DNA from: Antedon mediterranea
Taxonomy: Eukaryota; Animalia; Echinodermata
Direction of reading: 5' to 3'
DNA length: 64,000 nucleotides
Assembly (NCBI RefSeq): GCF_964355755.1
Contig: NC_092673.1
Span: forward strand, 29,447,648 to 29,511,647
Part shown: one piece after another, positions 5,168 through 63,802 of the stretch
Layout: every line of letters starts with the position of its first letter
How positions within the stretch are numbered: position 1 is the stretch's first letter
Made by a program: the position numbers and the translations under genes
Notes under the pieces: generated by a model
Database searches by the model: none
What the model was told of the DNA's origin: nothing
What the model saw: the letters and a program-made list of their open reading frames with translations, nothing else

Positions 5168-5385
5168 TTTCTTAGTTTTAGATCAAAAGACGATGACAGC
5201 ATTAACCAAATTGTAATACTCACTTATTTAGCACAGTTGTCTTATGGCTATTTTTGGCAAAACCTTACTTTATTTTTAATGAAGACGGAGCACTGTTTAT
5301 ACGGTTGCTAACTCATGATGCGCCCTCAAGCCCTTAGTCTCTGTATTATCAGTGACAATGACAACTCCTTTTTTTTATTTTGCAG

Positions 5386-14500: not shown

Positions 14501-17500
14501 CTCTAGTGGATATAAATGTTGAATGTATGTACTAATGTTTTGTTTGTCTTGTGTGGGTTCGTCACACTTTTATTATCATACTCTGTTATAAATATATATT
14601 TTAAGCATATTTTTTCCGCTCGTTTATATGTTACAACGTTAAAGGTAGTTGTAATAAAAACATTTGTTGTATATACATAAAATTATTGATATTGATGTTT
14701 TTAAAACCATATTTGCATTCGTTCATTTTTTTTAAAGTAATTTAAATATATAAAATAAGTAATAAAATGGCAAAAACAAGACGATAATAATAATAAATAA
14801 TAATAAATTGAATTTATAAAGCGTTTTATAATGACAGAAACAAACTCTAAGCGCTGTACATAAAAATAACAGAAACATCTGGTCAGCTTAATCTAAAACA
14901 ATCAATACCAAAAATTACTATACAAATAATATACAAGCGAGAACAGTCTTAAAATACACATAGATTGATTGATAAAAATTGATTAAAAACATACTTTTGA
15001 CATTATTCTATAATGTGTTCATGTAATGATGTTATACTAATGTTTTATCATGGTTTATATTTATAAAATCACTAAATTTCAGGGGTCTTAAAGCCTGTTT
15101 AGCCCCGCCTAAATCCACGCCTGATGATATATGTCAAAGACACTTAAACATGCACAAAACTTTCTAACTGTTATCAGCATTATAGAAGTTGCTTTGTGAC
15201 TGGACATTAACTGACCATGCTAGTCACACAATTCCCAGAGTAGGGGATATTCTAGTACGAGTACATCTCAGCTTTGTTAACATCATTTATTTATTACAGT
15301 GACTCATACACGTCTACATTGAAACAAACTCAAATTATATTTTATTGCAGTAAACAATTATAGTTACTGCAGTAAACTGCATTAGAATAATTTTGAATTG
15401 ATTTTTTATTTACACATCAATGACTAAACATTGTGTTTGCAATTTTTGAACTTTGAAACTTGTCTACTTCCTTTCATTCAGTTAACTGTATTTGTAAATT
15501 TCAGATTTGAATAAGCCAAGTATAACATGTCCACAAACTAGCAGTACTTCAATGGGAGAGGATTGTGTTGCAGATCTTAATGTTACTGTGATTAGTACTG
15601 ATCACATTGGTAATGTGTTAGAAGCTGACTGTTCACCGACAGACTTTAATACTCCTGGCAATCATTCTGTCATGTGTAATGTCACAGACATGGAAAACAA
15701 CTTTGCATCATGCACATTCTTTTACTACATCACAGGTAACAACTAATTTTATTCATTCAACTCAATCTTTTATTTCCGAATATCTGGTCCATAGAAAGTA
15801 AAAGTATATATAAATTAATTAAAAATAAACAAGACTGTTCAACAAACAAATAAACAATGTTATGTCTGGTTACCATTTGAAGTGTATAGTAAAAGCAAGT
15901 CTTAAAGATATATTGTCCACCTAAAAACAGTTGTAACATTTTTTTTTTAATATGCAATTTTAATGTCACATAATAAATATTTTGCTTTGACCAAAATTGG
16001 AATTGGATTACTAAAAAAAACTGTAATAAAAAGCAATAAATACTCAAATTGAATTGAATTTAACCGTTTGTTTTGTTTTGTTATAAGTGAAAAAACTTTA
16101 TAAATAAGTTTTAACTTTAATTATTGAGAATCTTTTAAATGGCATATCAAATTATTTTTTTTAGTAATCATCATTTTTCATGGTTTTGAAGACAGCAGCA
16201 TTTTTGCCTAATTGACAATGTTTACCAGATTGGTTTTAAAGATATGAAATACTGTTATGGAATGAAAGTCTCGTCTCGCAAAACTATTTTTATTATTCGT
16301 CTACCTAAATAGCAGCAGATATACCAAAACCCAATAAAATAGATGATCATAAACTGTATTTTACTTAAATATAAAAGTATACTTAGTCTACTTTTTGAAA
16401 CATTTGTTTAACACTTCATTTGTAATTTGCAGATGAACTTGAGCCAAATGTTACCTGCCCAGATAACTTTGAAATATGTGCAGATCCAGGAATTGATTCA
16501 GTAAATGCCACTTGGTATTCAGCCAATGCAACTGACAACTGTTGTGATAGTTCCAGTATCAACATAACTGCCAACTATACCAGTGGAGATCCTCTTATAC
16601 TTGGTGAATACACTGTAGGATATGCAGCTACTGATTGCTATGACAACATCAATTACTGTCAATTCACAGCTGAAGTAAAAGGTAAAACAATATGGTTTAT
16701 CTTCACTTTATCAGTTTTTTTTACAGTTTGATAATGTATGCAGAGATTAAGTATTACAGTCATCTCATTATCTATGATAACTATTGAATCTGAATCTGAT
16801 AATTAGGTTTGGATCAAGCAAAGTAAAGTATTTTGACTTTTGTAAATGCTTATACTGTATCTACTTATTTAGATTGTGAGGATCCAGTTCTTGATTGTCC
16901 ATCTGATCAAGATGTATATGCTGATTCTGATTGTCTTGCTGTTGCTACTTGGCCGGCGCCCATCGTCACTGACAACTCTGGGGAATCTTTCATGTCTGAA
17001 TGTGATTATGTCAATGGTAGCATATTCTCTGATTTAAATACAACGATTACCTGTAATGCTACTGATAACTATGGCAATACTGGATACTGTACCTTCAATG
17101 TCTTAATAGTTGGTAAGATATTTTGTTAAATATACTTTTATTATTATTATATACTTTTACACAATGCAAATTGACAGACAAGGTAAAAAGCAAGCAAAAC
17201 AAATCAAAAACACTTAGTTACAATTAAAAAATGATGCTAAAATTGCACTAAATACATGACTATTCCTATAGATTAATAAATTATTTAAAAAGTATATTTT
17301 ATTATGAATATCTTGCAGTCCCATTATGTGTGATTTAATACTATCATTTTGTTTTTATTTCCCAGATGAAATTGCTCCTAATGTAACTTGCCCAGATAAT
17401 ATTGAGATGGTGTGTAGTGACCCAGGAAGTGATTCCACAAATGTCACTTGGTATTCAGCCAATGCAACTGACAACTGTTGTGATAGTTCCAGTATCAACA

Positions 17501-20500
17501 TAACTTCCAACTATACCAGTGGTGATTTGTTTTCACTTGGTGTATACACTGTAGGATATGCAGCTACTGATTGCAATGATAATACTGGTTATTGTCAATT
17601 TACAGTTGAAATTATAGGTAAACTATTTTTCTGTCTGTTTTGATATTAGTTGTTTTACCTTTGTATAACTTATATAATATTGTAATTTTTTCACAATGGA
17701 CATCCATAACAATTAAATGTATTTCATTGTACAGTGTTGAATTTATTATATTAACTGATTATTTTAATGTTATCATTGATATTGGCAGATTTATTGCGAG
17801 ACTTTCTTTACATGGAATTTCTAAGCTCTCTTCATTCATAAGCTCACAACTAAGGATGAAAATTGTTTTTTTAAATAATTATTTCCACAGATTGTGAACC
17901 CCCAGAGCTTGAGTGTCCACCAACAGTTTCTGTACAAGGTGATGAAGATTGCAATGCAAATGCTACGTGGGAAGCGCCCTCTGTCACAGACAACTCTGGA
18001 GGCATGTTTGAACCAGTCTGTAACTATGCTAACGGAAGCACCTTTATTGAATACAGTACTATTGTTACCTGCAGTGCTACTGATGATTATGGCAACACAG
18101 GCAACTGTAGCCTTAATGTAACCATCTATGGTAAGAGTTGTAGTTTCCTAAAATCTCACAGTTAGATTAAAATTCTAAATTTAGTAATAAAAACAAATTT
18201 CATTTCATTCTCCTTTCTTATAACATTAGTCTTTGCCACCCATTGGTCAATTAAAAAATAATGTGAAAATAATTTGTAATTGCTGTTATGAGAACAGAAT
18301 CATGCTCATGAAAATGATCAATTTAATTGAAATGATAAATTCTTTAAAATATTTATTTTGTCTTAAATTAATCAGTGGATCTTTTGCCTGTTGTAGGATG
18401 ATTTGCATTGATAAATTTAGACTGCAAACGTTAAACGGTAGTCCTAAGGGGTTTTCACACCTGCTCTAGTCTGACTTTCAGGTTTATGTCAGACTGGCCC
18501 TTTAATACTATTGTACTACTAATTTGTAAGGTGGGTTTATGTTAGCATTAAGTAATAGAAAAATTCAATCATTTCTTTTGTAATGTGTATTAAATGCTAC
18601 ATGTTTCTATTTTATCTAACTATAGATGATACACCTCCAGTAATGAGCTGTCCAAGTGATATAGAAACATGTGCTGACATTAATTCAATAATGGCATCAG
18701 TTTATTGGGAACCAGTAAATGCTACAGACAATTGCTGTGAATATGTCAACATAACATCCAATTACACATCTGGAGATTCTTTTGAGATTGGTGAAAATGT
18801 AGTAACATATTATGGAACTGACTGCAGTGAAAACAGTGCCTTGTGTTATTTCAATATTACTGTGTTAGGTCAGTTTTTTTCATTGATTAAAATTAAATTA
18901 AACAGCCAGAGGATCGTTTATAGTCTGTTTTAAGGAACCTCAAACAACAATGTTTGATCCTAAAATTTAGAAAATCTATCACTACAGTATCTATCCCAAT
19001 TCTGCCCATTTTTTAGGTTTTTACTTGCTATAACTGTTTTCTATATTCTAGAATATTCACTGTTTCCTTTACTATTTTTTGTACGATGATAAATTTTATC
19101 TCTATTTGATAGATTGCCAAGCTCCAAACTTGACCTGTTCTGATGACCTCACTTTTTATGCTGATGAAACATGCTATGCTTATGCCAACTGGAGCGTGAC
19201 AGCAGAAGATAATTATGATGGTGGTGTTGATGTGATCTGTGATCATATTCATGATGACTATGTTTTTGGTAACTACACAGTAGTCTGTAATGCAACAGAC
19301 ATGGCTGGCAACACTGGGAACTGCTCTTTTGAATTCTTCATCCTTGGTGAGTACTTATAAAACATTTTTATTGACAAAAAAATATTCATGAGAAAACATA
19401 AAGTATATAATTTAAATCTAGTTATTTGTTTTAATACTAAATTATATGCCTTTTTATTTCTTTTAGATATTATTTCACCAAATATAACATGTCCGGATGA
19501 CATCACTGTTGACACTGAAATGGGAATCAATTCTGCAATTGTAACATGGGAATCTGCAGTTGCTACTGATAACTGTTGTGGAGATGACATTGAATTAACT
19601 CATAATTCTACAAATGGCACTAGTTTTAATATAGGAGTTACAATAATAGAATACACAGCAGTGGACTGTAATGGAAATGAGGACCAGTGTATCTTCTACA
19701 TTGAAGTTGAAGGTAAGACATAAACTTTGCATAAACTCTTACATTCAGCAAAATTGTATTTATCAATTATATGAACCACGCTTGAAATTAAATGTTAATT
19801 TTGATCAATTTCTTCTTTTCCATTTTTTAGATAATGAAGCACCTGTCCTTATATGCCCTGAAAACCAGAACTTAACCTTTGATTGGGACTGTTTGGCAAC
19901 TGCCACCTGGATGCCACCAAATGTCACAGACAACTCTGGAGATGTTTTTATGCCATTTTGTGATTATGAGAGTGGACAGACACTTACAGACTATGTTAAC
20001 ATTGTAACCTGTAATGCTACTGATGATTATGACAACACTGGAAATTGTTCATTTACAATTACAATTTATGGTAATTACTTTTGTCTAAACAGTTTATTGT
20101 TGAATTATTGCTGTAGTCATCTCCTCTTGTGTCATACATTCATTAAACTAATTATTTGTTGACAATTACACTTAGTTTGTTAACTTACAGATGAACGTGA
20201 GCCAAATGTTACCTGTCCTGATGACTTTGAAATATGTACAGATCCAGGAATTGATTCAGTCAATGCCACTTGGTATTCAGCCAATGCAACTGACAACTGT
20301 TGTGATGCCAACATAACTTCCAACTATACCAGTGGAGATCCTCTTACATTTGGTGAATACACTGTAGGATATGCAGCTACTGATTGCAATGATAATACTG
20401 GTTATTGTCAATTTACAGTTGAAGTTACAGGTAAAATTATGCTGTTTGATATTTAGTATTAAATATAAAAACATTAACTGTTGGAAATATGGTTTGATTA

Positions 20501-23500
20501 TTAAATTGTATTAACTTTTAGATTGTGAGCCTCCAATTCTTGTCTGTCCGCCAAGCCAGAATTTAACAGGTGACGAATATTGTACAACAAATGCCACATT
20601 CATGCTACCAAGTGTCACAGACAACTCTGGGGATAATTTTACTGCATTTTGTGACTATGAGAGTGGGCAGACATTTTCTGGTCAGATGACCCTGGTAACC
20701 TGCAATGCTACCGACAACTATGATAACACTGGAAACTGTACCTTCACAATCAACATCTATGGTATGATTACAGATTTTATTTTAACTGTTTTAAGATTGA
20801 TTTTTTAGTCAAAAATTAATATTTTATTCTTTTATCTGCAATTGTATTATGATACGAGAATGAGGTCAAAAGATTACAGGTAAAGAAAACTCAACAAGAA
20901 GCATACATTAAGATTTCAAATGACCTTAGCGAGAGATACCAAGGAATTTATCTTATAAACGCAATTTAAGGTTTTATAACATGTGAAGTAAAAGCAACAT
21001 GTTTCCATTATTTTATCTAACTGTAGATGATACACCTCCAGTAATGAGCTGTCCAAGTGATATAGAAACATGTGCTGACACTAATTCAATAATGGCAATA
21101 GTTTATTGGGAACCAGTAAATGCTACAGACAATTGCTGTGAATATGTCAACATAACATCCAATTACACATCTGGAGATTCTTTTGAGATTGGTGAAAATG
21201 TAGTAACATATTATGGAACTGACTGCAGTGAAAACAGTGCCTCATGTTATTTCAATATTACTGTGTTAGGTGAGTAATATTAGTATGACATAATCAGTTT
21301 TGTATATTTTGGTTTTTTTTATAATCTGTTATTACTTATTTCTATTTTTTTTTACTCATCTGCATTTAGATTGCCAAGCTCCAAACTTGACCTGTCCTGA
21401 TGACATCACTTTTTATGCTGATGAAACATGCTATGCTTATGCCAACTGGAGCCTAACAGCAGAAGATAATTATGATGGTGATGTTGATGTGTTCTGTGAT
21501 CGTAGTCATGATAACTATGATTTTGGTAACTACACAGTAGTCTGTAATGCAACAGACATGGCTGGCAACATTGCAAACTGCTCTTTTGAATTCTTCATCC
21601 TTGGTGAGTACTTAAAAAAAAAACTATTTATGAGAAAACATAGAGTATATAATTTGAATGTAGTTATTTGTTTTAATATGAAACTATATTCCTTTTTATT
21701 TCTATAGATATTATTTCACCCAATATAACATGTCCGGATGACATCACTGTTGACACTGAAATGGGAATCAATTCTGTAATAGTGACCTGGGATTCTGCAG
21801 TTGCTACTGATAACTGTTGTGGAGATGACATTGACATATCTTCTAATGTTACAAATGGCACTAGTTTTAATATAGGAGTTACATGGGTAGGATACACAGC
21901 AGTGGACTGTAATGGAAATGAGGACCAGTGTATCTTCTACATTGAAGTTGAAGGTAAGACATGAGCTTTGCAATAACCATCTTCAGCAAAATTGTCTTTA
22001 TTAATTGTATGAACCACCCTTGAAATAAAATTTTATCATTTTCTTCTTTTTTTTTTTAGATAATGAAGCACCTTTCCTTATATGCCCTGAAAACCAGAAC
22101 TTAACATTTGATTGGGACTGTTTGGCAACTGCCTATTGGCTGCCACCAAATGTCACCGACAACTCTGGAGATGTTTTTACACCATTTTGTGATTATGAGA
22201 GTGGACAGACACTTACAGATTATGTTAACATTGTAACCTGTAATGCTACTGATGATTATGACAACACTGGAAATTGTTCATTTACAATTACAATTTATGG
22301 TAATGACTTTTGTCCAAACATTTTATTGTTGAGTTATTGCTGTAGTCATTTCATCTTGTGTAATACATTCATTAAACTAAATATTTGTTGACAATTATAC
22401 TTCATTTTTTTATTCTTACAGATGAACGTGAGCCAAATATTACCTGCCCAGATGACTTTGAAATATGTACAGATCCAGGAATTGATTCAGTAGGTGCCAC
22501 TTGGTATTCAGCCAATGCAACTGACAACTGTTGTGATGCCAACATAACTTCCAACTATACCAGTGGAGATCATCTTTCACTTGGTGAATACACTGTAGGA
22601 TATGCAGCTACTGATTGCAATGATAATACTGGTTATTGTCAATTTACAGTTGAAGTTACAGGTAAAATTATGCTGTTTGATATTTAGTATTCAACCTGTT
22701 AGTGGCGGTTTCATCGCTGTTGGTTGTCAACTGAATAAAATAAAATAAAAATAAAAATTAAATATAAAAACTTTAACTGTTGGAAATATGGTTTGATTAT
22801 TAAATTGTATTAACTTTTAGATTGTGAGCCTCCAGTTCTTGTCTGTCCGCCAAGCCAGAATTTAACAGGTGACGAATATTGTACAACAAATGCCACATTC
22901 ATGCTACCAAGTGTCACAGACAACTCTGGGGATAATTTTACTGCATTTTGTAACTATGAGAGTGGGCAGACATTTTCTGGTCAGATGACCCTGGTAACCT
23001 GCAATGCTACCGACAACTATGATAACACTGGAAACTGTACCTTCACAATCAACATCTATGGTATGATTACAGATTTTATTTTAACTGTTTTAAGATTGAT
23101 TTTTTAGTAAAAAATTAATATTTTATTCTTTTATCTGCAATTGTATTATGATACGAGAATGAGGTCAAAAGATTACAGGTAAAGAAAACTCAACAAGAAG
23201 CATACATTAAGATTTCAAATGACCTTTGCGAGAGATACCCAAGAATTTTTCTTATAAAACGCAATTTAAGGTTTTATAACATGTGAAGTAAAAGCAACAT
23301 GTTTCCATTATTTTATCTAACTGTAGATGATACACCTCCAGTAATGAGCTGTCCAAGTGATATAGAAACATGTGCTGACACTAATTCAATAATGGCATCA
23401 GTTTATTGGGAACCAGTAAATGCTACAGACAATTGCTGTGAATATGTCAACATAACATCCAATTACACATCTGGAGATTCTTTTGAGATTGGTGAAAATG

Positions 23501-26500
23501 TAGTAACATATTATGGAACTGACTGCAGTGAAAACAGTGCCTCATGTTATTTCAATATTACTGTGTTAGGTGAGTAATATTAGTATGACATAATCAGTTT
23601 TGTATATTTTGGTTTTTTTTATAATCTGTTATTACTTATTTCTATTTTTTTTACTCATCTGCATTTAGATTGCCAAGCTCCAAACTTGACCTGTCCTGAT
23701 GACATCACTTTTTATGCTGATGAAACATGCTATGCTTATGCCAACTGGAGCCTAACAGCAGAAGATAATTATGATGGTGATGTTGATGTGTTCTGTGATC
23801 GTATTCATGATAACTATGATTTTGGTAACTACACAGTAGTCTGTAATGCAACAGACATGGCTGGCAACATTGCAAACTGCTCTTTTGAATTCTTCATCCT
23901 TGGTGAGTACTTAAAAAAAAAACTATTTATGAGAAAACATAGAGTATATAATTTGAATGTAGTTATTTGTTTTAATATGAAACTATATTCCTTTTTATTT
24001 CTATAGATATTATTTCACCCAATATAACATGTCCGGATGACATCACTGTTGACACTGAAATGGGAATCAATTCTGTAATCGTGACCTGGGATTATGCAGT
24101 TGCTACTGATAACTGTTGTGGAGATGACATTGACATATCTTCTAATGTTACAAATGGCACTAGTTTTAATATAGGAGTTACATGGGTAGAATACACAGCA
24201 GTGGACTGTAATGGAAATGAGGACCAGTGTATCTTCTACATTGAAGTTGAAGGTAAGACATGAGCTTTGCAATAACCATCTTCAGCAAAATTGTCTTTAT
24301 TAATTGTATGAACCACCCTTGAAATAAAATTTTATCATTTTCTTCTTTTTTTTTTTTTAGATAATGAAGCACCTTTCCTTATATGCCCTGAAAACCAGAA
24401 CTTAACATTTGATTGGGACTGTTTGGCAACTGCCTATTGGCTGCCACCAAATGTCACCGACAACTCTGGAGATGTTTTTACACCATTTTGTGATTATGAG
24501 AGTGGACAGACACTTACAGATTATGTTAACATTGTAACCTGTAATGCTACTGATGATTATGACAACACTGGAAATTGTTCATTTACAATTACAATTTATG
24601 GTAATGACTTTTGTCCAAACATTTTATTGTTGAGTTATTGCTGTAGTCATTTCATCTTGTGTAATACATTCATTAAACTAAATATTTGTTGACAATTATA
24701 CTTCATTTTTTTATTCTTACAGATGAACGTGAGCCAAATATTACCTGCCCAGATGACTTTGAAATATGTACAGATCCAGGAATTGATTCAGTAAATGCCA
24801 CTTGGTATTCAGCCAATGCAACTGACAACTGTTGTGATGCCAACATAACTTCCAACTATACCAGTGGAGATCATCTTTCACTTGGTGAATACACTGTAGG
24901 ATATGCAGCTACTGATTGCAATGATAATACTGGTTATTGTCAATTTACAGTTGAAGTTACAGGTAAAATTATGCTGTTTGATATTTAGTATTCAACCTGT
25001 TAGTGGCGGTTTCATCGCTGTTGGTTGTCAACTGAATAAAATAAAATAAAAATAAAAATTAAATATAAAATCTTTAACTGTTGGAAATATGGTTTGATTA
25101 TTAAATTGTATTAACTTTTAGATTGTGAGCCTCCAGTTCTTGTCTGTCCGTCAAGCCAGAATTTAACAGGTGACGAATATTGTACAACAAATGCCACATT
25201 CATGCTACCAAGTGTCACAGACAACTCTGGGGATAATTTTACTGCATTTTGTGACTATGAGAGTGGGCAGACATTTTCTGGTCAGATGACCCTGGTAACC
25301 TGCAATGCTACCGACAACTATGATAACACTGGAAACTGTACCTTCACAATCAACATCTATGGTATGATTACAGATTTTATTTTAACTGTTTTAAGATTGA
25401 TTTTTTAGTAAAAAATTAATATTTTATTCTTTTATCTGCAATTGTATTATGATACGAGAATGAGGTCAAAAGATTACAGGTAAAGAAAACTCAACAAGAA
25501 GCATACATTAAGATTTCAAATGACCTTAGCGAGAGATACCAAGGAATTTATCTTATAAAACGCAATTTAAGGTTTTGTAACATGTGAAGTAAAAGCAACA
25601 TGTTTCCATTATTTTATCTAACTGTAGATGATACACCTCCAGTAATGAGCTGTCCAAGTGATATAGAAACATGTGCTGACACTAATTCAATAATGGCATC
25701 AGTTTATTGGGAACCAGTAAATGCTACAGACAATTGCTGTGAATATGTCAACATAACATCCAATTACACATCTGGAGATTCTTTTGAGATTGGTGAAAAT
25801 GTAGTAACATATTATGGAACTGACTGCAGTGAAAACAGTGCCTCATGTTATTTCAATATTACTGTGTTAGGTGAGTAATATTATTATGACATAATCAGTT
25901 TTGTATATTTTGGTTTTTTTTATAATCTGTTATTACTTATTTCTATTTTTTTTACTCATCTGCATTTAGATTGCCAAGCTCCAAACTTGACCTGTCCTGA
26001 TGACCTCACTTTTTATGCCGATGAAACATGCTATGCTTATGCCAACTGGAGCCTAACAGCAGAAGATAATTATGATGGTGATGTTGATGTGATCTGTGAT
26101 CGTATTCATGATAACTATGATTTTGGTAACTACACAGTAGTCTGTAATGCAACAGACATGGCTGGCAACATTGCAAACTGCTCTTTTGAATTCTTCATCC
26201 TTGGTGAGTACTTAAAAAAAACTATTTATGAGAAAACATAGAGTATATAATTTGAATGTAGTTATTTGTTTTAATATGAAACTATATTCCTTTTTATTTC
26301 TATAGATATTATTTCACCCAATATAACATGTCCGGATGACATCACTGTTGACACTGAAATGGGAATCAATTCTGTAATCGTGACCTGGGATTCTGCAGTT
26401 GCTACTGATAACTGTTGTGGAGATGACATTGACATATCTTCTAATGTTACAAATGGCACTAGTTTTAATATAGGAGTTACATGGGTAGAATACACAGCAG

Positions 26501-29500
26501 TGGACTGTAATGGAAATGAGGACCAGTGTACCTTCTACATTGAAGTTGAAGGTAAAACATAAACTTTACAATAACCATCAGCAAAATTGTCTTTATTAAT
26601 TATATGAACCAACCTTGAAATAAAATTTTATCAATTTCTTCTTTTCTATTTTTTAGATAATGAAGCACCTGTCCTTATATGCCCTGAAAACCAGAACTTA
26701 ACCTTTAATTGGAACTGTTTGTCAACTGCCTATTGGCTGCCACCAAATGTCACAGACAACTCTGGAGAGGTTTTTATGCCTTATTGTGATTATGAGAGTG
26801 GACAGACACTTACAGATTATGTTAACATTGTAACCTGTAATGCTACTGATGATTATGACAACACTGGAAATTGTTCATTTACAATTACAATTTATGGTAA
26901 TGACTTTTGTTCAAACATTTTATGGTTATATAGTCATTTCATCTTGTGTAATACATTCATTAAACTAAATATTTGTTGACAATTATACTTAGTTTGTTAA
27001 CTTACAGATGAACGTGAGCCAAATATTACCTGCCCAGATGACTTTGAAATATGTACAGATCCAGGAATAGACTCAGTCAATGCCACTTGGTATTCAGCCA
27101 ATGCAACTGACAACTGTTGTGATGCCAACATAACTTCCAACTATACCAGTGGAGATCCTCTTACATTTGGTGAATACACTGTAGGATATGCAGCTACTGA
27201 TTGCAATGATAATACTGGTTATTGTCAATTTACAGTTGAAGTTACAGGTAAAATTATGTTGTTTGATATTTAGTAATAAAAATATAACCATAACCTTTTA
27301 GAAATACAGTATAATGTGATGTTCCTTAAATTGTATTTATTCACTTTTAGATTGTGAGCCTCCAGTTCTTGTCTGTCCGCCAAGCCAGAATTTAACAGGT
27401 GACGAATTTTGTACAACAAATGCCACATTCATGCTACCAAGTGTCACAGACAACTCTGGGGACAATTTTACTGCATTTTGTGACTATGAGAGTGGGCAGA
27501 CATTTTCTGGTCAGATGACCCTTGTAACCTGCAATGCTACCGACAACTATGATAACACTGGAAACTGTACCTTCACAATCAACATCTATGGTAAGATTAC
27601 AGATGTTGTTTTAACTGTTTTTAAATTGATTTTTTAGCCTAATATAATTATATTTAAAAGGTCAACAGATTACTGGTAAAGAAAACCCAACAAGAGGTAT
27701 GCATCAAGATGGTGTTTTTTTATTTTATAGAATGCAATTTAAGGTTTTGTAACATATGAAGTAAAAGCAACATGTTTCCATTATTTTATCTAACTGTAGA
27801 TGATACACCTCCAGTAATGAGCTGTCCAAGTGATATAGAAACATGTGCTGAAACTAATTCAATAATGGCAATAATTTATTGGGAACCAGTAAATGCTACC
27901 GACAATTGCTGTGAATATGTCAACATAACATCCAATTACACATCTGGAGATTCTTTTGAGATTGGTGAAAATGTAATAACATATTATGGGACTGACTGCA
28001 GTGAAAACAATGCCTCTTGTTATTTCAATATTGATGTGCTAGGTGAGTAATATTAGTATGACATAAGCAGTAGCTTATATATATTTTTTTATTTTTTTTT
28101 ATTATTTATGATATTTAATTTTTTTTCTCATCTGCATTTAGATTGCCAAGCTCCAAACTTGACCTGTCCTGATGACCTTACTTTTGATGCTGATGAAACA
28201 TGCTATGCTTATGCCAACTGGAGCGTGACAGCAGAAGATAATTATGATGGTGATGTTGATGTGTTCTGTGATCATATTCATGATGACTATGTTTTTGGTA
28301 ACTACACAGTAGTCTGCAATGCAACAGACATGGCTGGCAACATTGCAAACTGCTCTTTTGAATTCTTCGTCATTGGTGAGTACTTACTTAAACAATTTTA
28401 GTGAACCAAAGCATTTAGCAATTCCATTAAATTCATTTTTATGTTTAGTTTTACTATAATATCAACTATGAACCTTTTTTCTATAAATATTTAGCCACTT
28501 GTGTAACATGAAACTATCTATACTCCTGTTTCTTTTAGATATCATTTCACCCAATATAACATGTCCGGATGACATCACTGTTGACACTGAAATGGGAATC
28601 AATTCTGTAATTGTAACCTGGGATTCTGCAGTTGCTACTGATAACTGTTGTGGAGATGACATTGACATATCTTCTAATGTTACAAATGGCACTAGTTTTA
28701 ATATAGGAGTTACAGTAGTAGAATACACAGCAGTGGACTGTAATGGAAATGAGGACCAGTGTATCTTCTACATTGAAGTTGAAGGTAAGACATAAACAAA
28801 CTTTTGTTTATGTGAGTGAGTGGCCGAGCGGTTAAGACAGTGGAACCGTAATTACGTAGCCATAACATTGACAGGGGTTCGAGGCTCATTCACTCCATGG
28901 TTCTAGTGGTAGAACGAATCTTCTCGGATGAGGACTATAAACCGTAGGTCCAGTGTACACATCTAGTTCGTGTGCACTTTAAAGAACCTAGTAGGCCTAC
29001 ATCTTTCGAGATGAGTAGGGGGTTACCCCGGTGTATTAGTACATCACAGCCACTAATCACCAACTGGGCCCTCTGGGAGACCAGTCTTTGACTGAAGAGG
29101 TCACCCAGTATAAATATATATTTCAATGAATATCACTGTAATGTACCACACTTGAAATAAAATTTTTGATTTTTATCACTTTCTTCTTTTCCATTTTTTT
29201 AGATAATGAAGCACCTGTCCTTATATGCCCTGAAAACCAGAACTTAACCTTTAATTGGGACTGTTTGGCAACTGCCACCTGGATGCCACCAAATGTCACC
29301 GACAACTCTGGAGATGTTTTAATGCCATTCTGTGATTATGAGAGTGGACAGACACTTACAGATTATGTTAACATTGTAACTTGTAATGCTACTGATGATT
29401 ATGACAACACTGGAAATTGTTCATTTACAATTACAATTTATGGTAATGACTTTTGTCTAAACAGTTTATTGTTGAGTTATTGCTGTAGTCATCTGATCTT

Positions 29501-42481: not shown

Positions 42482-42521
<40 letters not shown>

Positions 42522-48500: not shown

Positions 48501-51500
48501 AGATTCAAGCAATCCCCCCCCCCCTTTTTTTTTTTAGTGCCTTTTAAAGCTACAAGCTTGGAACCTTGTGTAGTGGGATATGGGATAGGTTTAGCTCATT
48601 ACTTCCAGATCATTAATTTCCAAAACATTTGGAATCCAAATGTTAATCAACATATGTAAACAAATGTTTTTTAAGTAAATGCTAAAAGTCAACTCTCCCA
48701 ATACCAGACTCTCTGATAGCTAGAAACTTTCATAAAACCAAATGGTTCCTTTGTTACCATTAAAATCCAATTCAGAATATCAGACTAGCCCTGATCGAAG
48801 GTGTCCAGTATTATAGTGGGAGATGATTGTATTTGCTTTGTCTTAATCTGCATGATATAACGTAATCTCATTGGAAAAATATTGTTTTTATTTCTGTCTT
48901 AGATAATATGGCGCCTTATCTGGAATGTCCTGGTGATATTGAAGTTTGTAATAATGGTACCAGTAGTATGGCATCAGTTACTTGGGAACCAGCAAATGTT
49001 ACCGACAACTGCTGTGCGGATGTTGTTGCGTCATCAAACGTTACTTCAGGATACTACTTCACAATCGGTAACACGCTTGTGCGGTACACAGCTAGTGACT
49101 GTGATGATAACACGGCTACTTGTGATTTTAATGTCCTGGTTAAAGGTTTGTATAATTCATTGTGGTAACTATTTAATCCATCTTGTCTTAAGCTCTGTCT
49201 AAGTGTGATGTGCCCAAATATGGTAAGCTTGGTTCCCACTAGAACATAACGCAAGGACGTAAACGCAACGCAAGTGTGTTAACCAATGACAAGTGACAGT
49301 TCGAATAATCCATCTCTTGCGATTGGTCAATTGCGTTATATTCTTGTGTTGCGTCTCTAATAGGAACCAAGTATTAGTGGTATAACCAAATATGGTAGTG
49401 ATATGACATTATCATATCCATATATGGGCACATCACATTCTTTTGTTACATAAAGTTTGATAGTGTAGACAGAGCTTTAGAATATGGTTCATGTTTTTAA
49501 TTATATATATATATATATATATAAATTAATTTAAATAAATATAGAATATATCGTTATTATAATCCCATGCTTGAGACAACCCTTCTACCAACTCTTCGAT
49601 ATTCAGACTTTAGTAAATATATTCTTAATGCATTCTTAGTATAATCACACTCCTTACTTTTCAGCAAATTTTGTACCCAGGCCTATATGATACATAAATT
49701 CTGTACTATTGTTACTTACGGCATTTGTCAAATCAACATTCATTTGCTACATTAAAATTTTCTGTCATTTTTTTTCAGATTGTGAGCCTCCAGTCTTGAC
49801 ATGTCCTGATGACCTAATTTTTTATGCTGATGAAACATGCAATGCTTATGCTAACTGGAGCGTGACAGCAGAAGATAATTATGATGGTGATGTTGAGGTA
49901 ATCTTTGATCAAACTCATGGTGACTATGCTGTTGGTAACTACACAGTAGTCTGTATTACAACAGACATGGCTGGCAACACTGCAAACTGCTCTTTTGATT
50001 TCTTTGTCTTTGGTGAGTGCTATAATCAAAATAAGTGATTCTTTTATTTGTTGAATACTAACAATGAAAATTGCCCTACAGTACGCAGTTTATAGGTTGT
50101 CATGCCAGTTATAAAGATTATGATTTGTGTGTATTTCCTGTCTTTAGATGATATTTCACCTATCATAACATGTCCGAATGATATCACTGTTGACACTGAA
50201 ATGGGAATCAATTCTGCAATCGTGACCTGGGATTCTGCAGTTGCTACTGATAGCTGTTGTGGAGATGACATTGACATATTTTCTAATGTTACAAATGGCA
50301 CTAGTTTTAATATAGGAGTTACATGGGTAGGATACACAGCAGTGGACTGTAATGGAAATGAGAACCAGTGTATCTTCTACATTGATGTTGACGGTAAGAC
50401 ATACAGAATACAATATATGTATGAACTATATACTGTTTATTTTTGTGTATAATCACAATTTATTGAGTAAGTCATTGTTTTTTTTTTTCATAAACACTTT
50501 AGTCTAATTGTAGAAACAAAGACAAACTATTTTTGTTTTCTTTCATAGATGGTGAACCACCTGTACTTGACTGTCCACAAAGTCAAAACTTAACAGGTGC
50601 AGAGGATTGCACAGTTACAGCCACCTGGATGCTACCAAATGTTACTGACAACTCTGGAGGTGAATATATGCCAGTTTGCGAATATACTAGTGGAGATATA
50701 TTTTCTGATGATGTGATTGTAGTCTGTAATGCTACTGATGATTACGACAACACTGGAATATGCACATTTGCAATTACAATTTATGGTAAGGATAACAACC
50801 TTAATCTTCTTATGGTTTAATCCTAATATATATATATATATACATACATATCTTTCACAACATTTTACATTTGTTGTTATTCTTATTATTTTTTTTAGTC
50901 TAATTTATTCAGAAATATAAATATTTACATTGGGATTGTACAGAGACAGGTAATTGCCTGTAGTCTGTAGCCTGTAATATATAATCACAAAGAAAAAAAA
51001 CCTGAAATAAGGATTAAACATTTTTTTTTTTAAATTATATATTTAGGCAAATTGCCAAGGATAACCATAGCCAATTCATTCACTATCCTTCTCAAAGGTG
51101 GTAATCCTATTCACAAGACAAACATACACAAGATGCTCTACATAAACAAAGACTACAAGTCTTTGTATTGAAAACTTATTGAAAATAAGTACTGCTCTTT
51201 TAATATTATATGGATTTACTGATAATTTCCTATTGTGTATTCTTAGATGAGCTGCCTCCTATTCTTGAATGTCCAGAAGACATGATGGTATGTACCGAGA
51301 CAGGTGTTGATTCAATGTCTGTAACTTGGTACACAGCAAATGCAACTGACTGCTGTGACGATGTTACCATTGCTGCCAACCACACAAGTGGAAACATGTT
51401 TTCAGTTGGTGATACTACTGTGGGATATTCAGCAACAGATTGTAAAGGCAATACAGGATATTGTCAGTTTGTTATCACAGTCACAGGTAAATAATATGAA

Positions 51501-54500
51501 CATTTCTTCCTAACTAAAAGCGATATGATGTTTTTATTTTGCATACTGCAATGATATAGCTGAGGATATTGATTCAGTAAAATTGTTTCCATTTTATATT
51601 ACAGTTTGTAACAGTCACATGTTGTTAATATGTCATTTCATAATAGAGCCTTCAAATTTCAAACCACTATTTTTATTCTTGAATTCAATTGTTTATTTCG
51701 AATTACAGTCTTGCAAAAGGTAACAATATCATGTGATCATATATTGTCCAATAAGATTTTATTTAATCTTGTATTACAAAAAATAAACTAATCACCAAAT
51801 AATAAAGACCACCATTGTCCACACATTTGATTAATGACAAAAAAAGAGTTTTTAATCTTGAATTAATATTTTTATTTTATAGATTGTGAACCACCTGTGG
51901 TAACCTGTCCTGATAATCAAACATTAGAAGGAGATGCGTCATGTATGGTGATTCCCATGTGGTCTGATCCAACTGTCACTGACAACTATCAGGATGACTT
52001 AGTAGCAGTTTGTGATTATTCATCTGGAGATGTATTTGATCAAATGATCACAATTGTGACTTGCAACGCTACAGATAGTTTTGACAACACTGGAAGTTGT
52101 TCTTTTACAATCTTCATTGAAGGTACCAGTTTCCTTTTAAATATTTTGGTTGTCTTTTCTTAAACAGTTTAAAAAAATGAAAATAGGACACAGAAAAATG
52201 TGTATGAAATGCTTTAGATAAAATAGTTTTAGCTCCAATTTCAAGCTGACACCTTTGTAATCATTCAATATTGAAAACACTTTAAACCAAGACTTAAAGA
52301 GAGCACACCCACCCAGTAATAATAATAATAACTTTATTGACAAACACTTTTGGATCAGTGGCAACACACTCATTAGTGGTACAGTCAACTTAAACAACAT
52401 ACAATTGAACATTATAAACCAAACATGTATGTATGTACACTCAATGATACATACATAGACATTAAATACAATAGTAAAACAAAACCAATGGAGTGGCTTT
52501 TCTTAAATTTTAACTTTTTAAACTTTTTTTTTTGCAACAATGCCAATTAGCTCATTTTTAACTCAGATCTTTTTTCCCAGGCAACTTTAAGAAAATGAAC
52601 CAGTGATAGATTAAATAGATTATCTTCTTCATCATTTAAGTTTTCCAAACAGTAATACAGTAATTTAGTAGTTAAATGGATGTAAAAGAGATACAACCAC
52701 AATCCTTTAATGGTTCCCTCCCCCGAGAATTGCCTGCTTCTTCTTTTTAAATTTAAAATAAATATTTTTTCAGGTATATATATATATATTGCATTCACAA
52801 AGGTTTAAAAAATTGGGACTAGGAAAATATAAACTTAAAAAAGTATTTTGCACCACAAATCTATGGCCCAGAGTGGCCGTGATTTAAATATGTTATGATA
52901 TTCAATAGAAGGCTATGAGAAAATTTCTATGGAGATATTTGTATCAACATAAGTTTTGCACAATATAGAACTTAATATCATGTATTAAAGTGTTTTATTA
53001 AAGTGTTTAGTTAGTTGCATGAAAACTTGGCCAATATGATTGTGTAAAATAACTTGCCTGAAATACTACATTACAACATACTGAATAACTGATCTCTTTG
53101 TTTTCCTAGATAACATGCCACCTGATTTACAATGTCCTGACGATATTGACGTTTGTACTGATTCCAATGTAACTACTGTATTATGGGAACCAGCAAATGC
53201 CACCGACAACTGCTGTACTGATCTCAGGACTACTTCATCAAATATTAGTTCAGGAGAACCTTTCTATGGATTGGGAAACAACGTTGTACGCTACTTTTTA
53301 ACTGACTGCAATTTCAACTTAGCTATTTGTGATTTTAATGTATTTATTCAAGGTTGGCAAACTTTATTATTTTTACGTTTCAAATAAAATTAAATATAGG
53401 CTGACACCAACTTTATGATGTTTTTTTGACAAATTACATTCTTCATGTTATAACTACATATATATTGTTTTACTTTTAGATTGTGAAGCTCCTGTCCTGA
53501 CTTGCCCTGATGACTTTATGTCTGTCACTGATGACACTTGCTCCGATTCAGCAACATGGGTGGTTACAGCAGTAGATAATTATGATGGTGATGTTGATGT
53601 GACCTGTGACCTTGCACCTGGTGCGTATGCCCTTGGTAACTACACAGTAGTCTGTAATGCAACAGACTCTTCAGGAAACATAGGAAACTGCTCATTTGAT
53701 TTCTTCATCCTGGGTGAGTACTAAAACTATTGAGGCTATACATTTACTTACAGTAGGCCTAGACCTAGTAATACTATTGAGGCTATACATTTACTTAGTA
53801 GACCTAGTAAAACTATTGAGGCTTTTACTAGTACATTAACAGATTTATAGTTGTCAGATGACACATGTCTCCATTTTATTTTTATTCACAATATGGCTTT
53901 GGGTTAAATTATTACAATCTATTTTTGGTTTTTAGATGAAACTTCTCCGAATGTAACATGTCCGGATGACATCATGGTTTACACTGACATGGGAATCAAT
54001 TCTGCAATTGTAACCTGGGATTCTGCAGTTGCTACTGATAACTGTTGTGGAGATGACATTGACATATCTTCTAATGTTACAAATGGCACTAGTTTTAATA
54101 TAGGAGTTACAGTAGTAGAATACACAGCAGTGGACTGTAATGGAAATGAGGACCAGTGTACCTTCTACATTGATGTTGAAGGTAAGATTATTGGTTTGCA
54201 TCCAACTTGGCATAAGAAGTATAAATGCGATGATCGCCGCTAGTTTTACCAGTCCTAATTAGCACACTTTTACACATTGTATTAAAGCTATACATATTTA
54301 CAAAATTTGCAGATTTGTCAAATTTTGAAGTTTGAACATTCCTAGTTAGGTTGACATTTATTATCAATTGTGCCATGTTAATTTTGTTTGAGGGGACCGC
54401 TCAGGATGTAAATCCCCTTTGGGGATCTAGGGAGCTATCTCTTGTACCATTACAAATGATTGCATTTTTTGTCTGTTATCTTTTCTTTTCTCAGGTGTTT

Positions 54501-57500
54501 GCTCTATATGTATGGGATCAAAATAATTCAAATCACATAATATATTTATTATACAGACTTTAATTCGAAATTAGCATTATACTTGATTTTATTGTTATAG
54601 ATTCCGAAGGTCCTGTCTTAAATTGTCCTGGTGATCTTGGACCATTTGAAGTAGATGATAATTGTATGGCATATGTTGAATGGAACGTAACAGCAACAGA
54701 CAACAATGATGGAAGTGTTCCAGTAGTTTGTGACTTGATGCCTGGGGATTTTCCCGATGGCAACTATACAGTGAATTGTACAGCTTCAGACTCATCAGGA
54801 AATACAGCCAACTGTTCTTTTAATGTTGATGTGTATGGTAGGTATTGCTTGATGAATCCATTATAAAATGACTCAGACCTTTGTGATGGCATAGTCTGAT
54901 TGGTAGATAAGTATTTTTAACACCCTTGCGTTCTTTATTTATAGATTCTATTGCACCGGAGATTACATGCCCATCAAATGTATCTATGTGCTCACAATCT
55001 GGGACATCTACAGACCTGGCATATTGGGATTCACCCATAGCTACAGATAACTGCTGTGATGACATCACTTTATCTAGTGACATTGATAATGGTACAGCAC
55101 TTGATGTTGGTGTATTGCATGAAGTTGTCTATACTGCAACAGACTGCAATATGGTGGAAGCACAATGTTCATTTACAGTATTTTTGGAAGGTAAAATTCA
55201 GGTTTTGGTTCGATAAATATAATAATGGTAGTCTTATATAGCACCTAATACAATGTGCTTTACACTCAAAATTGATCCATAAAATATCGTGGAGCCATTT
55301 ACACTGCTCCATTCTCCATCACTGGGAAGCTCCCATATGAGAGCTCGCCGGAACAGTATTCACAGGAGCTTGAGTGAAAAAAACCCATTATTTTCAGATT
55401 TGGAATAGACTAGATTATGTGTGGCAGTCTTCATATTATATAATATTTGAATTATGTTTTACATTATTTTTAAATAATTGTAATAATAACGCATATAATT
55501 ATTTTATAGATTGTGATGCTCCTGAAATAAATTGTCCTGATAATCTTGGACCATTTGAAGTAGATGATAATTGCACAGCATATGTTGAATGGAACGTAAC
55601 AGCAACAGACAACAGTGATGGAAGTGTTCCAGTTGTTTGTGACTTGATGCCTGGGGATTTCCCTGATGGCAACTATACAGTTTCTTGTTCAGCATCTGAT
55701 TCGGATGGAAATCCTACAACATGTTCTTTTAATTTCTATGTAAATGGTGCGTCTTTTTATATTACCTTTTACTGTCCATCAGTTTGTAGCCTAATGTTCT
55801 TTGTTACCATCAATAGACCCACCATTGCAAGGCAATAAACCCATTTAAGCATTAAACATGTAGTTTTACAAATAATATAGTATGTTCTATATAAGTATGT
55901 TTTAAATACAGTTGAGTTAATTGGTTAAGTAACTACTTCAAGGCGCAGAGAATCAAAACGTTTATTTTATTCATACATTCATATCATTGCAATCTAAACC
56001 CTTGTGTTCCACTGCATTGAAACACTACATAGATTATATTATGTTCGTTAGTTACTGTGTATGGTTTTTTTTATGAATGTTTATATGTATGTTCTTTTAT
56101 TGTTCTCTCTTAATAGATAATATTGCACCGGAGATTAATTGTCCATCAAATGTATCTATGTGCTCACAATCTGGGACATCTACAGACCTGGCATATTGGG
56201 ATTCACCCATAGCTACAGATAACTGCTGTGATGATATCTCTATATCTAGTAACATTGATAATGGTACAGCACTTGATGTTGGTGTATTTCATGAAGTTGT
56301 CTATACTGCAACAGACTGCAATATGGTGGAAGCACAATGTTCATTTACAGTATTTTTGGAAGGTAAGTCTGGGTTTCGTGGTATGAACAGAATTGGATTA
56401 ATTAAAACATATTAAAGTATGTTAATTCTTACAATTTTAAAGAAATGTTTTATTTATATAGCCTGAGATGATACATACTTGAGTTTTGTGTATCTAACTA
56501 TCATCCTTCAGTCTTTTGTATTTAATTGTTTTAAGTATAATAAAATTCAGCACATACAATTATCTTATAGATTGTGATGCTCCTGTATTAAATTGTCCTG
56601 ATAATCTTGGACCATTCGAAGTAGATGATAATTGCACAGCATATGTTGAATGGGAAGTAACAGCAACAGACAACAGTGATGGAAGTGTTCCAGTTGTTTG
56701 TGACTTGATGCCTGGGGATTTCCCTGATGGCAACTATACAGTGAATTGTACAGCTTCAGACTCATCAGGAAATACAGCCAACTGTTTATTTAATTTCCAT
56801 GTATATGGTAGGTATTTTATCAGGTTTTCTAAATCATCATTGTTACCCTATTACTAATTAATTTATGTTTGCAAAATGTGCTTGGCAATTGTTTGGGCTT
56901 TACCTATTATCACTCGTGGAATAAATAATATTATTATCATCTAAATGGTTCTGATTTTTCAGATGCAACAGGTCCAGTACTGACTTGTCCCTCGGTAGTT
57001 GAAGGATGCAATGACGATGGACGAGCCAATGCTACTGTCATTTGGAACTTTGAAAATCCAACAGACAATTGCTGTGATAATATTAATGCAGTCTCAAGTA
57101 ACCAAAACGGAAGCACTTTTGATATTGGAACTACAGTAGTTACGATTGAAGCTGCAGATTGCAATAACAACTTACAGATTTGTGAATTCAATGTTATTGT
57201 TAATGGTAACTCTCACTTTTGTTTTCTATATTTTCCATACTGTACAGAAACCAATTTATTGAAATCCTCTTTATAAATTACGACACAAAATAATAAATGA
57301 TAGGAGAGACACTTTATCAAATCTATTTTGACAACTTTTATATTTGACAGATTGTGAAGATCCTGTAATCACTTGTCCCGATTCAGTTGAGTTGGTCGCT
57401 GGCCCTCAATGTACTGCTGTGTACACTTGGTCAGACCTTAATGTTGAGGACAATGACCCAGACTCAATTGAGGTTGAATGTGACTACACATCTGGAGAAG

Positions 57501-60500
57501 CATTTGACGTTGGTACAACTTCTGTGGGTTGTACAGCTGTGGACAGTGCAGGCAATCAAGATAATTGCACATTCACTGTCTATGTATCTAGTATGTGATT
57601 AGCTGTTTTTTTACAATGTCAAACAACTAAAGTATATGGCAACAAAGTCTAAGGCTCTGTACTTAGTAATTCTAACCCACTGATCTATTAGGGAAAGTTC
57701 TGCAACCTAAATAGTTAATTCCCAAATATACATGCAGTATAGTTCTAGTTGTCCCATGACCTAGAGGATTGTAGGGGTGTAGCAGATAAGAGACAGTGCA
57801 CCATGTCTTTCCAAAGGGGAATTAGAATTTGTACTTATCATGACACAATACATGGCATAAGCCATATCTCCCAGTGGTGCCTATCTTGCAGGGTTTTTAA
57901 TTTATTTGTATTTATTTCCACTTATTCTTAGATTGTTCGTATCCTACTGTTGAATGTCCTGATGATGTAGAATTGGAAGCTGATGAAGATTGTAATGCTA
58001 CTCTTTATTACAATGTCACTGCAACAGACACCGATGGCAATACTCTTGACTATGAATGTTCTTATGAGAGTGGAGTGGAGTTTAGTTTAGGAGAAACAGA
58101 CGTAGTTAACTGCTCAGCCACTGATAATGGTGGTCGTGTAGGATACTGTCTCTTTGAAGTAGCAGTAATAGGTGGGTGTACACATCTTAATTTAAAATAT
58201 AAATTTATTAACTGTGTATTAAATGAGTATGCAGCACAGTATCTAAATGCTGTATGTGGTTCTTATATGCTTCATGAAATAGGAGTTTTTAACTTTTACT
58301 GTATATTTTCCATGGCTGTATACACATGACAATGGTCAATTATAATTGATATTTAGTTTTGTGTATTTAGAATTGTTTTTGTTTTTATTTTAGATACTAC
58401 GTCTCCCGTCATAGAATGCCCATCAGACCTGTCAGTGTGTTCTGAACCTGATATCAATGGGAAAATGGTTTCTTGGAGTATGCCGAATGCTACTGATTTG
58501 TTCTGTACAAACATCACCATTAGTCCTAATACAAGTTATCAATTTTTGGAAGTAGGCACACATCCTATTACATACTCTGCAGTAGATGGTTCTGGTAACA
58601 GTGAAAACTGTTCATTTAATGTCATAGTTATGGGTGTGTATTACATTTCATTTTATATTATATCATATTTCAAACATTATGCTACCTTAAATTGCATCCA
58701 TTGTCTCTATAACACCAACAGTGCAAACTGTTCATTTAATGTCATAGTTACAGGTATGTTTTCATATTTCAAACATTGGGCTACCTTTAAATTGCATCCA
58801 TTTTCCCCAAATGAACTTGATGAAGGAATAGTGTTTATAGCTTTCACGTTCTTTGACATAATATAGAGATAGAGATAGATGTGTACCAGAATTAAACTCT
58901 CTGTTTTTTGTATGCTCCAACACCCACGCATATCTTTGTAAATGCGGTGTAGTGCAACCGACTTTCATGAATTACGTGAATGTCCTCTTACTAACGCCAA
59001 CATTCTAATACTGTAGATCTTAGTTCATTTATTTGTCCAAAAGGAAATTCATGTTGACATACAATTTCTAAAAAAAATTAGTTAAAGGTTAGTAAATACA
59101 GAAAAAGATAATAAAATTTAAACTATACAACAGAGCAACAAAATTTCTCTGATGAACAATGAATTACCTGAGTTGGTTAAAAGGCTGATTGAATATGGAA
59201 TAAAAGATTTAAGGAATTTGTTTACAGTGCTGCAGCTTCTTCTGTTTATTATCAATTGAAACTTATTCTCAAAATTTGTTTTTGACTCTTCAAAGTTAGT
59301 GAAATATTGTCTTAGTTTGTTTTTATATTGATATTGTACTTCATTTGTGCCATGTTGGACACTCAGTTATCAATATGGAATGTAAGAAAATAAAGATTTG
59401 TAAATACACAGAGCGACACAGGAAGCATAGACCATTGCCATGAATAAATGTTTAATTTCAATTGCTAATTATTATTTCAGATTGTGATGCTCCACAGTTG
59501 ACATGTCCTGATAACTTTAACCTAACTGCTGATGAAAATTGTGAAGCTTCTATCACATGGGACCCAATTGATGTGTATGATAATTCTGGAGATATTCTAA
59601 CTGTTGAGTGTGATTTTGACAATGGTACTCTTGTTACAACTGGAGATTACAATATAGCGTGCCGGGCGCAAGACTCTACTGGCAACAATGGCACCTGTGA
59701 ATTTAACGTTGTAGTTGCAGGTAATGTTTATTGTTAAAAGAGGATCATTAATTATATGATCATCATTAAAGATGATCATATCCTTTTTATAAAATTTGTG
59801 TTCTGTAGTTCTATAGTTGTAGACAATTGTTTAATTGTTATAATTTTGGAATTGTTTTTTTGTTGTTGGTAAGATTACATTATTATGTGCAAACACGTTT
59901 AATTCTGTTTCAACATTCAGGGATGCATGAAACAGCATGTCAATCATCATCAGATTTGTCATATCATACTGAAATCAGTTCTTTTTTTTGTTAACTTCTA
60001 GATACAACAGCACCAGTATTCACATGCCTAACAATGATAAACAAGTGTAACGACTATGGCCTTCCTTATGCTACCAACTTGACATTCTTTGACAGTATCA
60101 CAGACAACTGTTGTCCTCAAAGTATATCAATGTCTATGGAAGAAACAATCAGCCAATTCGATATTGGAACCACAAATGTTACAATAACTGTTGAAGATTG
60201 TAATGGAAATGTAGAAATATGTTCAACTTCTGTTAACGTTGAAGGTAAGACCATAGAGATATTATAGTAAATATATCTATGATAAGACTCAGTGGCCTAA
60301 TAGTTATGACCGCTCAATAGCTAGACCCAGGAGGCCCAAAGTTTAATTGATTCCAGAGCATGAGAAGCCCCAATGTAACTACCAGCGTGGAGGGCCTCTT
60401 AGGATTGCTAAACCAGGAGCATTTTTTCCCTTAAGCAAGCTTTTTTTATTTATTGTCATATTTTAAAATTGTGAAATCTTTAAAAAAGGTACATATTTAT

Positions 60501-63802: not shown

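Follow-up and report, generated by a model that had tools for sequence, protein, structure and literature searches.

The stretch of DNA analysed here, a window of 64,000 nucleotides from the crinoid Antedon mediterranea (NCBI RefSeq assembly GCF_964355755.1, contig NC_092673.1, positions 29,447,648 to 29,511,647 of the forward strand), is AT-rich and, judged from its predicted exons, is part of the gene of a giant EGF-SEA-like-HYR protein. It encodes 93 HYR domains between positions 11079 and 63802, 90 of them from 15505 onwards, each on one exon. All 93 exons are 231–276 nt long, a multiple of 3, bounded by AG and GT and of symmetric phase 1. The array reaches the window edge and probably continues beyond it. 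We propose that the extra cysteines of these domains, which are matched across neighbours, form inter-domain disulfide staples, a reading to which we give a probability of about 75%. Run X5 was taken as RNA by guess (RNA-like contigs from a different sample). Its contigs span ten consecutive exon pairs (53110–60002), skipping the predicted introns exactly at the predicted GT..AG sites, which indicates transcription of this part and splicing in agreement with the predicted exons; an eleventh joint listed with them is not a splice joint. The donor site 56362, corrected by hand, is also matched by X5.

Besides the two canonical Cys of each domain, positions were labelled a (DC, position 2), b (EIC), c (loop of type Y), d1 and d2 (CC), g (TDC), and e and f for an internal pair that is common in HYR domains. 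A type X domain has DNCC and TDC and usually the EIC Cys; a type Y domain starts with DC and has a loop Cys. An earlier reading, made from the sequence only, had reported that the two types alternate from the fourth domain on. This stands for 44 X and 46 Y domains, with one break where Y domain 57351 is followed by Y domain 57932. At the 44 joints from X to Y, b and a are both present in 32, both absent in 12 and discordant in none (Fisher p 5e-11, uncorrected for shared ancestry). The earlier list of twelve X domains lacking the EIC Cys was exact to the coordinate, the next domain starting with DN (eight times), DK, DT, DG or DS, and the claim that each b-bearing X precedes a DC domain was equally correct (32 of 32). 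Of 45 loop Cys c, 44 have d2, or a shifted Cys, in the next domain, and d2 without c occurs in 0 of 47. Within domains, d1 and g co-occur in 43 of 43 cases, e and f in 46 of 47. When the distal Cys (b plus c) are counted against the proximal free Cys (a plus d minus g), the two numbers are equal at all 89 joints from 15505; in 2000 shuffles of the domain order, balanced joints averaged 67.8 and never exceeded 76. Over all 93 domains, junction-facing Cys come in even numbers at each of the 92 joints. The pattern expected of a staple is present at 77 of the 89 joints.

The departures from the regular pattern are listed in Table 1. The first Cys of CC and the TDC Cys were said to be lost together in domain 58394, and this is what its TTC and GGT codons show; position 58502 has a T>C variant (Phe/Ser) in other runs, never a Cys codon. 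Exon 54601, described earlier as a paralogue of the DCDAP exons, is indeed closest to 56571 and 55510 over its full length, including its first 30 nt (25/30), and its missing a is a point loss, not a crossover. A hidden X exon was sought in the 341-nt intron of the Y-Y joint, and none was found.

Table 1. Features of the window discussed in the text (positions of the window).
Feature	Position	Strand	Remarks
Eight EGF-like exons (six-Cys motifs)	5409, 6042, 6629, 7152, 7819, 9442, 10096, 10581; span 5409..10676	+	motif scan
HYR1-3, ordinary HYR domains	11079..13007	+	2/4/2 Cys, no junction Cys; HYR1 Pfam HYR 42.6 bits
SEA-like domain, at least two exons	13788..14520	+	weak; 13788 to about 13915, and from 14360 with TSGSVVADF; 3' end provisional
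Array of 90 one-exon HYR domains, Y (46) alternating with X (44)	15505..63802	+	acidic, 335 N-glycosylation sequons
Example X domain	20191..20430	+	b 20235-37, d1/d2 20298-20303, g 20385-87; HYR 45.1 bits
Example Y domain	20522..20761	+	a 20524-26, c 20581-83, internal e-f pair; HYR 36.6 bits
Twelve X-to-Y joints of unstapled pattern	after 19467, 21708, 24007, 26306, 28539, 31099, 33416, 40327, 42633, 46810, 50148, 53936	+	span 19467..54837
X domain with shifted Cys, DNCCEY to DNCYEC	34957..35199	+	TAT 35067, TGT 35073; Cys number unchanged
Y domain without Cys e	49779..50012	+	TTT at 49904; Cys f (49952) left partnerless
Y domain of DCDAP lineage without DC Cys	54601..54837	+	TCC at 54603; upstream X 53936 without EIC Cys; joint 53936 to 54601 spliced in X5
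Y-Y joint	57351..58171	+	orphan c (57410) opposite orphan a (57934); joint 57590 to 57932 in X5 contig
X domain with DLFC and VDG	58394..58633	+	without d1 and g

Closest to the window domains, at 47–76% identity, are 'hyalin-like' protein models of the crinoid Anneissia japonica; our literature search found no functional study of them. P0001, P0004, P0022-24, P0033, P0042, P0121 and P0304 have the X/Y cysteine code too, and P0004 and P0304 also the EGF-HYR-SEA-HYR order of the window. They are fragmentary automatic models with units of 6, 4 and 3 domains, their arrays being closed by SEA or by ordinary HYR. Orthologues had been suggested as a check of the code: these paralogues share it, b being followed by a in 28 of 28 cases without discordance and c by the DNC Cys in 46 of 49 (isoform duplicates counted), and they add losses at array ends. 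In P0121_2856 and 3173 the whole DNCCD loop is gone, with g and the upstream c retained. P0121, an automatic model, also has two joints of loop Cys and DC between Y domains (2127 to 2207, 2367 to 2449), like that at 57351 in the window.

A tabulation of the cysteines informed by phylogeny had also been called for. For the X domains, 89 of them from the window and seven A. japonica proteins, a quick tree was made with the scored Cys masked, the isoform P0024 left out and identical rows merged. On this tree b changes four times. Two of these changes are losses in the last X of A. japonica arrays, nested among b-bearing domains with a Shimodaira-Hasegawa-like approximate likelihood ratio test value of 99 each: P0023_653 groups with 47508/51247 and has non-HYR sequence downstream, and P0121_3489 lies inside the DDTPP clade and is followed by an ordinary HYR without DC. 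On the tree of 86 Y domains a changes seven times, four of them forced by well-supported branches. There are independent losses besides the main lineage, and most of the window cases go back to one six-exon unit, as the caveat of shared ancestry in the sequence-only reading had anticipated. In each of the Y exons 44595, 33759, 40662 and 45288 the 5' half matches one paralogue and the 3' half another, the final 90 nt of 44595 being identical to those of 40662; judged from these matches, gene conversion or crossover has taken place inside Y exons.

Beyond the crinoids, 240 homologues formed a first set, and 224 more proteins fetched later were used as a held-out set, in which animal and other proteins are mixed and from which P0304 was excluded. 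Other echinoderm and hemichordate HYR domains have nearly no junction Cys, in contrast to their abundance in the window: 38 such proteins with 1302 domains have 1 a, 2 b, 27 c, 3 DNC and 0 TDC Cys, and junction Cys are nearly absent from four other crinoid HYR proteins as well. The non-animal set comprises 190 proteins not named as animal, the named ones being bacterial, mostly from Bacteroidota and also from Planctomycetota and Zixibacteria. At 2808 of the 2962 internal joints of these arrays, c is accompanied by the next domain's DNC Cys. A first test, confined to fixed columns, showed no clear signal in them (phi 0.10–0.17; within-protein permutation 1541 versus 1533 ± 4, maximum 1545). Since fixed columns missed many loop Cys, the test was redone by segment counts, and over the 190 proteins (2962 triplets) c then correlated with a free DNC Cys with a phi of 0.76 for the next domain, versus 0.49 for the same and 0.48 for the previous domain. 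Where a domain of a c-rich protein lacks c (n=64), the DNC Cys is missing from the next domain in 32 cases and from the same or previous one in 0. After clustering at 55% identity, the next domain lacks it in 15 of 34 clusters, the same and the previous domain in 0 each. The held-out set reproduced this direction (37/63 next, 2/63 same, 3/63 previous). When any free distal Cys is counted, only 2 of 2840 free DNC Cys are without an upstream partner (phi 0.85 versus 0.55). At array ends, the loop Cys is kept by 206 of 255 last domains versus 2737 of 2789 internal ones; the DNC Cys is kept by 247 of 255 first domains, which is the weak side of this test and is partly due to unaligned domains that cut the runs. 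In P0047, b, c, d and a occur in the same domains, b being absent from the last domain and a from the first, the polarity predicted for a b-a staple.

The bacterial arrays have a single domain type with the same putative staple nearly everywhere, in contrast to the X/Y alternation of the window, and among 465 proteins the alternating code with CC and TDC was found in A. japonica only. Two variants were noticed among these proteins. The non-animal P0158, P0154, P0162 and P0173 have the TDC Cys in 6–7 of 35 domains, with an odd count at the joint. P0136, P0202, P0230, P0233 and P0063 represent a further non-animal HYR subtype without the loop Cys. The Cys that these proteins have within an F-x-C-x-D-V-G stretch resembles a third distal position from which the next DNC Cys could be stapled.

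Sequence searches of the PDB retrieved no solved HYR array. The best match of the X profile was the pair of cadherin-like (CDHL) modules of SraP (PDB 4M03, E 3.5e-4; also 4M00), which shares the D-x-T...DN...TD motif with the window and differs from it in having two modules only, no junction Cys and a remote similarity to HYR. As described in the available part of the SraP paper, one Ca2+ is held per joint by D661, T663 (main chain), D690, N691 and D734, E587/V588 of the upstream module hydrogen-bond N691 of the next one, and Ca2+ renders the rod rigid according to small-angle X-ray scattering as well as simulation (PMC4047093). With the register taken from the aligned letters, the ligands correspond to D1, position 3, DN and TD of HYR, and E587/V588 to about HYR 15–16, the location of b. 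All 93 window domains have D1 and the D of both DN and TD, and 87 have the N of DN. This alignment would put a, d and g next to the Ca2+ ligands, at a domain's proximal end, and b and c at the distal end of the upstream domain. An AlphaFold2 model of the close homologue P0033 (8-row alignment; predicted local distance difference test score 78.6) is all-beta, with b on strand A' (72–75) and strand G running to residue 140, a being residue 142. Foldseek with this model matched cadherin and immunoglobulin (Ig) arrays, the bacterial protein GhpA among them (E 2.5e-13, template modelling score 0.27); the PDB sequence searches matched no GhpA chain. The model and its matches agree with the fold expected of HYR domains, all-beta and Ig-like units of about 80 residues in tandem. 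A complex prediction for one Y and one X domain, made without alignments, scored 0.02 and is neutral either way.

The staples could be arranged as follows. Each domain would have a proximal end, formed by the DC linker, the DN loop and the TD loop, and a distal end, formed by the end of strand A' and the A'-B loop. At an X-to-Y joint, the EIC Cys at the end of A' would bond to the DC Cys in the linker that follows. A Y-to-X joint would bring together four Cys (the loop Cys, CC and TDC), giving one inter-domain and one local bond. With one staple per joint, the array would become a stiff, long extracellular rod, and at every joint, stapled or not, the downstream domain would bind a Ca2+ through its D1, DN and TD, in the manner of SraP. 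The co-variation itself would be maintained by selection against unpaired thiols once exon shuffling alters the neighbours, and removal of a free thiol would explain the loss of Cys at 54601. As for the three bonds put forward by the sequence-only reading, the inter-domain pairing is retained, with b-a (EIC-DC) the best supported by the patterns; the assignment of d1 to g and of d2 to the loop Cys is not unique. This map of the four-Cys cluster is consistent with 58394 and 34957. On the other side, non-animal arrays pair the loop Cys with the d1 (DNC) position, and P0121_2856 and 3173 show c with g alone, so that we see about an even chance for it; the cluster may tolerate several pairings.

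Several observations weigh against inter-domain staples. One six-exon unit is the ancestor of most window cases, and 44595 is chimeric, its DC having been carried along with the upstream unit, so that its change of a is not independent. Domain 49779 has the only unpaired Cys of the window. Among the crinoid proteins, 3 of 49 loop Cys have no DNC Cys in the next domain, P0042_96 has three Cys in its Y-to-X cluster, and P0304 has an a directly behind SEA, in a model that looks truncated. In 19 of the 34 non-animal clusters the next DNC Cys is retained despite the missing loop Cys, most of these clusters carrying different distal Cys as judged by eye, and the bacterial P0158 has three-Cys clusters. 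Outside crinoids the b/a evidence is thin, with 13 cases of both, 11 of b alone and 1 of a alone, and 3, 69 and 1, respectively, in the held-out set. Finally, SraP is a remote homologue without Cys at these sites, and the predicted template modelling score of the P0033 model is 0.32.

The co-variation could also be a side effect of gene conversion and tandem duplication, through which neighbours are inherited together, the Cys being free, metal-binding or paired within domains only. All 12 window X domains without b are one lineage, the exons 44595, 33759 and 40662 are chimeric, and the grouping of four Cys at Y-to-X joints is what a Zn(Cys)4 site needs. We nevertheless consider this explanation highly improbable. 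Array-end losses affect two other X lineages, and the point loss at 54601 and the shift at 34957 come in addition. At least 15 unrelated clusters of non-animal domains show the directional signal, as does the held-out set, and Cys are lost in twos (58394; P0121_2856 and 3173). The number of Cys is odd in 26 of the 93 window domains, and with pairing within domains only, 24 window domains would have an odd count. Moreover, the protein is extracellular, as indicated by its EGF domains and sequons. Matched Cys could instead bond between chains, in parallel dimers in register or in a polymer. On stoichiometry alone, cis pairing is indistinguishable from domain-swapped trans pairing; the strands of the GhpA heptamer run parallel, and CDHL1-2 of SraP dimerises, as far as the available parts of the two reports go. 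That the partner lies in domain i+1, not in i or i-1, and that the mapped positions are in contact across the cis joint of SraP makes bonding between chains improbable, and the disulfides of GhpA are reported as intra-molecular in the part of that work available.

The sequence-only reading went further and saw in every sixth, unstapled joint a selected flexible hinge between rigid six-domain segments. Its "five of six joints locked" holds between 19467 and 54601, where unstapled joints are spaced by 6 in 10 of 11 gaps and by 8 in one, and does not hold elsewhere, the last 13 joints of the window all having the stapled pattern. The unstapled X1-Y1 joint is retained in A. japonica paralogues at 65–76% identity, and at 54601 a Cys was lost rather than gained at 53936, as a selected hinge would have it. 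However, that loss is explained by removal of a free thiol, and the period coincides with the duplication unit, with no support beyond it; P0121 of A. japonica also has units of 4 and 3. Ordinary animal HYR arrays are nearly staple-free (see the 3 DNC and 27 loop Cys above). D1, DN and TD are intact at 12 of 12 unstapled joints, and such Ca2+ sites rigidify SraP, so that these joints are predicted to be held by Ca2+ like ordinary HYR joints rather than to be free hinges. The periodic hinge is therefore doubtful, and staples and hinge together, as originally proposed, seem rather unlikely to us.

Concerning the rest of the gene, the HYR product has 343 sequons in 7571 residues, 11.6% D and 0.5% K+R; such a composition suggests that the protein likely serves as an acidic, strongly glycosylated spacer or as a filament of the matrix, and at about 4 nm per domain it would be roughly 0.3–0.4 micrometre long. 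Pfam HYR (PF02494, cut-off 21.7 bits) was exceeded by 8 of 9 tested window exons (22.9–70.4 bits), exon 19113 staying below it with 17.4 bits; HYR_4C (PF23237, cut-off 27 bits) reached 13.5–15.3 bits in three of the nine and had no match in the other six. Exon 9434 matched Pfam EGF with 29.4 bits. The SEA-like domain contains GSVV, a SEA motif. The region of P0004 that matches this window domain scored 14.4 bits with SEA (PF01390), below the cut-off of 26.4, and the first SEA-like window exon scanned alone had no Pfam match. One X exon (45974–46249) has an 11-residue acidic insertion, SSSPTDSDVFSDGNYG, within the middle loop. Just upstream of the first EGF exon, on the minus strand, lies a retrotransposon of the long interspersed nuclear element type (812–5182) with a coiled-coil ORF1 (4412–5182) and an 874-aa open reading frame for an endonuclease-reverse transcriptase (1145–3766; RVT_1 123 bits). 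The intron of about 2 kb behind exon 34957 harbours two degenerate minisatellites based on CCTGTAT, in opposite parts (35209–37092), and other tandem repeats lie at 6790–7014 (19 nt x12), 61553–61961 (208 nt x2) and 62463–63186 (88 nt x8). A very high-copy interspersed repeat in the introns at 49200–49480 and 60749–60870, with joints between both places and opposite strands in all runs, is probably a short mobile element.

The window protein belongs to the same family as echinoderm hyalin and shares with it long tandem arrays, the canonical CP...C pair and an optional e-f pair. Hyalin proper is located in the hyaline layer of the sea-urchin egg and binds cell receptors. It is described in the accessible part of PMC3723904 as composed exclusively of HYR modules, and the function of HYR as unknown. 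The window protein departs from this description, having eight EGF exons and a SEA-like domain ahead of its array. Horizontal transfer from bacteria was considered as well and is not favoured: once the additional Cys are masked, an echinoderm hidden Markov model outscores a non-animal one for 74 of the 93 window domains, a weak comparison whose controls overlap the training set. This preference makes convergence likelier than transfer, and the crinoids probably reached their staples independently of bacteria.

Disulfides between neighbouring Ig-like domains are known. In the stem of the grappling hook of Aureispira, GhpA (PDB 9FLY, 9FLP), they link nearby Ig-like domains within a molecule and are proposed to confer rigidity (10.1101/2024.01.29.577165), and in the Siglec-type MAG, a surface protein of animals, a disulfide joins two of the Ig-like domains (PMC2116432), both as given in the available parts of these papers. 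GhpA resembles the window protein in its long Ig-like arrays and differs in being heptameric and without an alternating code; its paper, in the part available, makes no mention of HYR. MAG, on the same basis, has a single inter-domain bond, in contrast to the code repeated along the array. A literature search for a code of junction Cys in HYR, or for this crinoid protein, found none; it covered few subscription journals and did not include the original description of HYR. As far as this search goes, the junction code is undescribed for HYR; new in this analysis is the directional loss of the next-domain DNC Cys in non-animal, largely bacterial arrays.

We have shown that the sequence code is real and replicable. 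It may be a general junction code for HYR, in which a free distal Cys is always answered by a proximal Cys of the next domain, bacteria using one type of staple and feather stars two, alternating, with one omitted per six, to build a sub-micrometre rod with rigid segments and joints tunable by Ca2+ or redox; we regard this wide version as a speculative proposal, unlikely to hold as a whole. If it were true, tunable joints could contribute to the variable stiffness of the echinoderm matrix. The co-variation would serve as a contact map for joints between HYR domains, valid from bacteria to crinoids. The code predicts named disulfide peptides and would turn the role of long HYR arrays into a direct test of stiffness. 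The presence of joints of stapled and unstapled pattern side by side in one protein would offer a design template for rigid spacers, and it would be of interest to evolutionary biology that bacterial adhesin-like proteins and a single animal lineage have probably converged.

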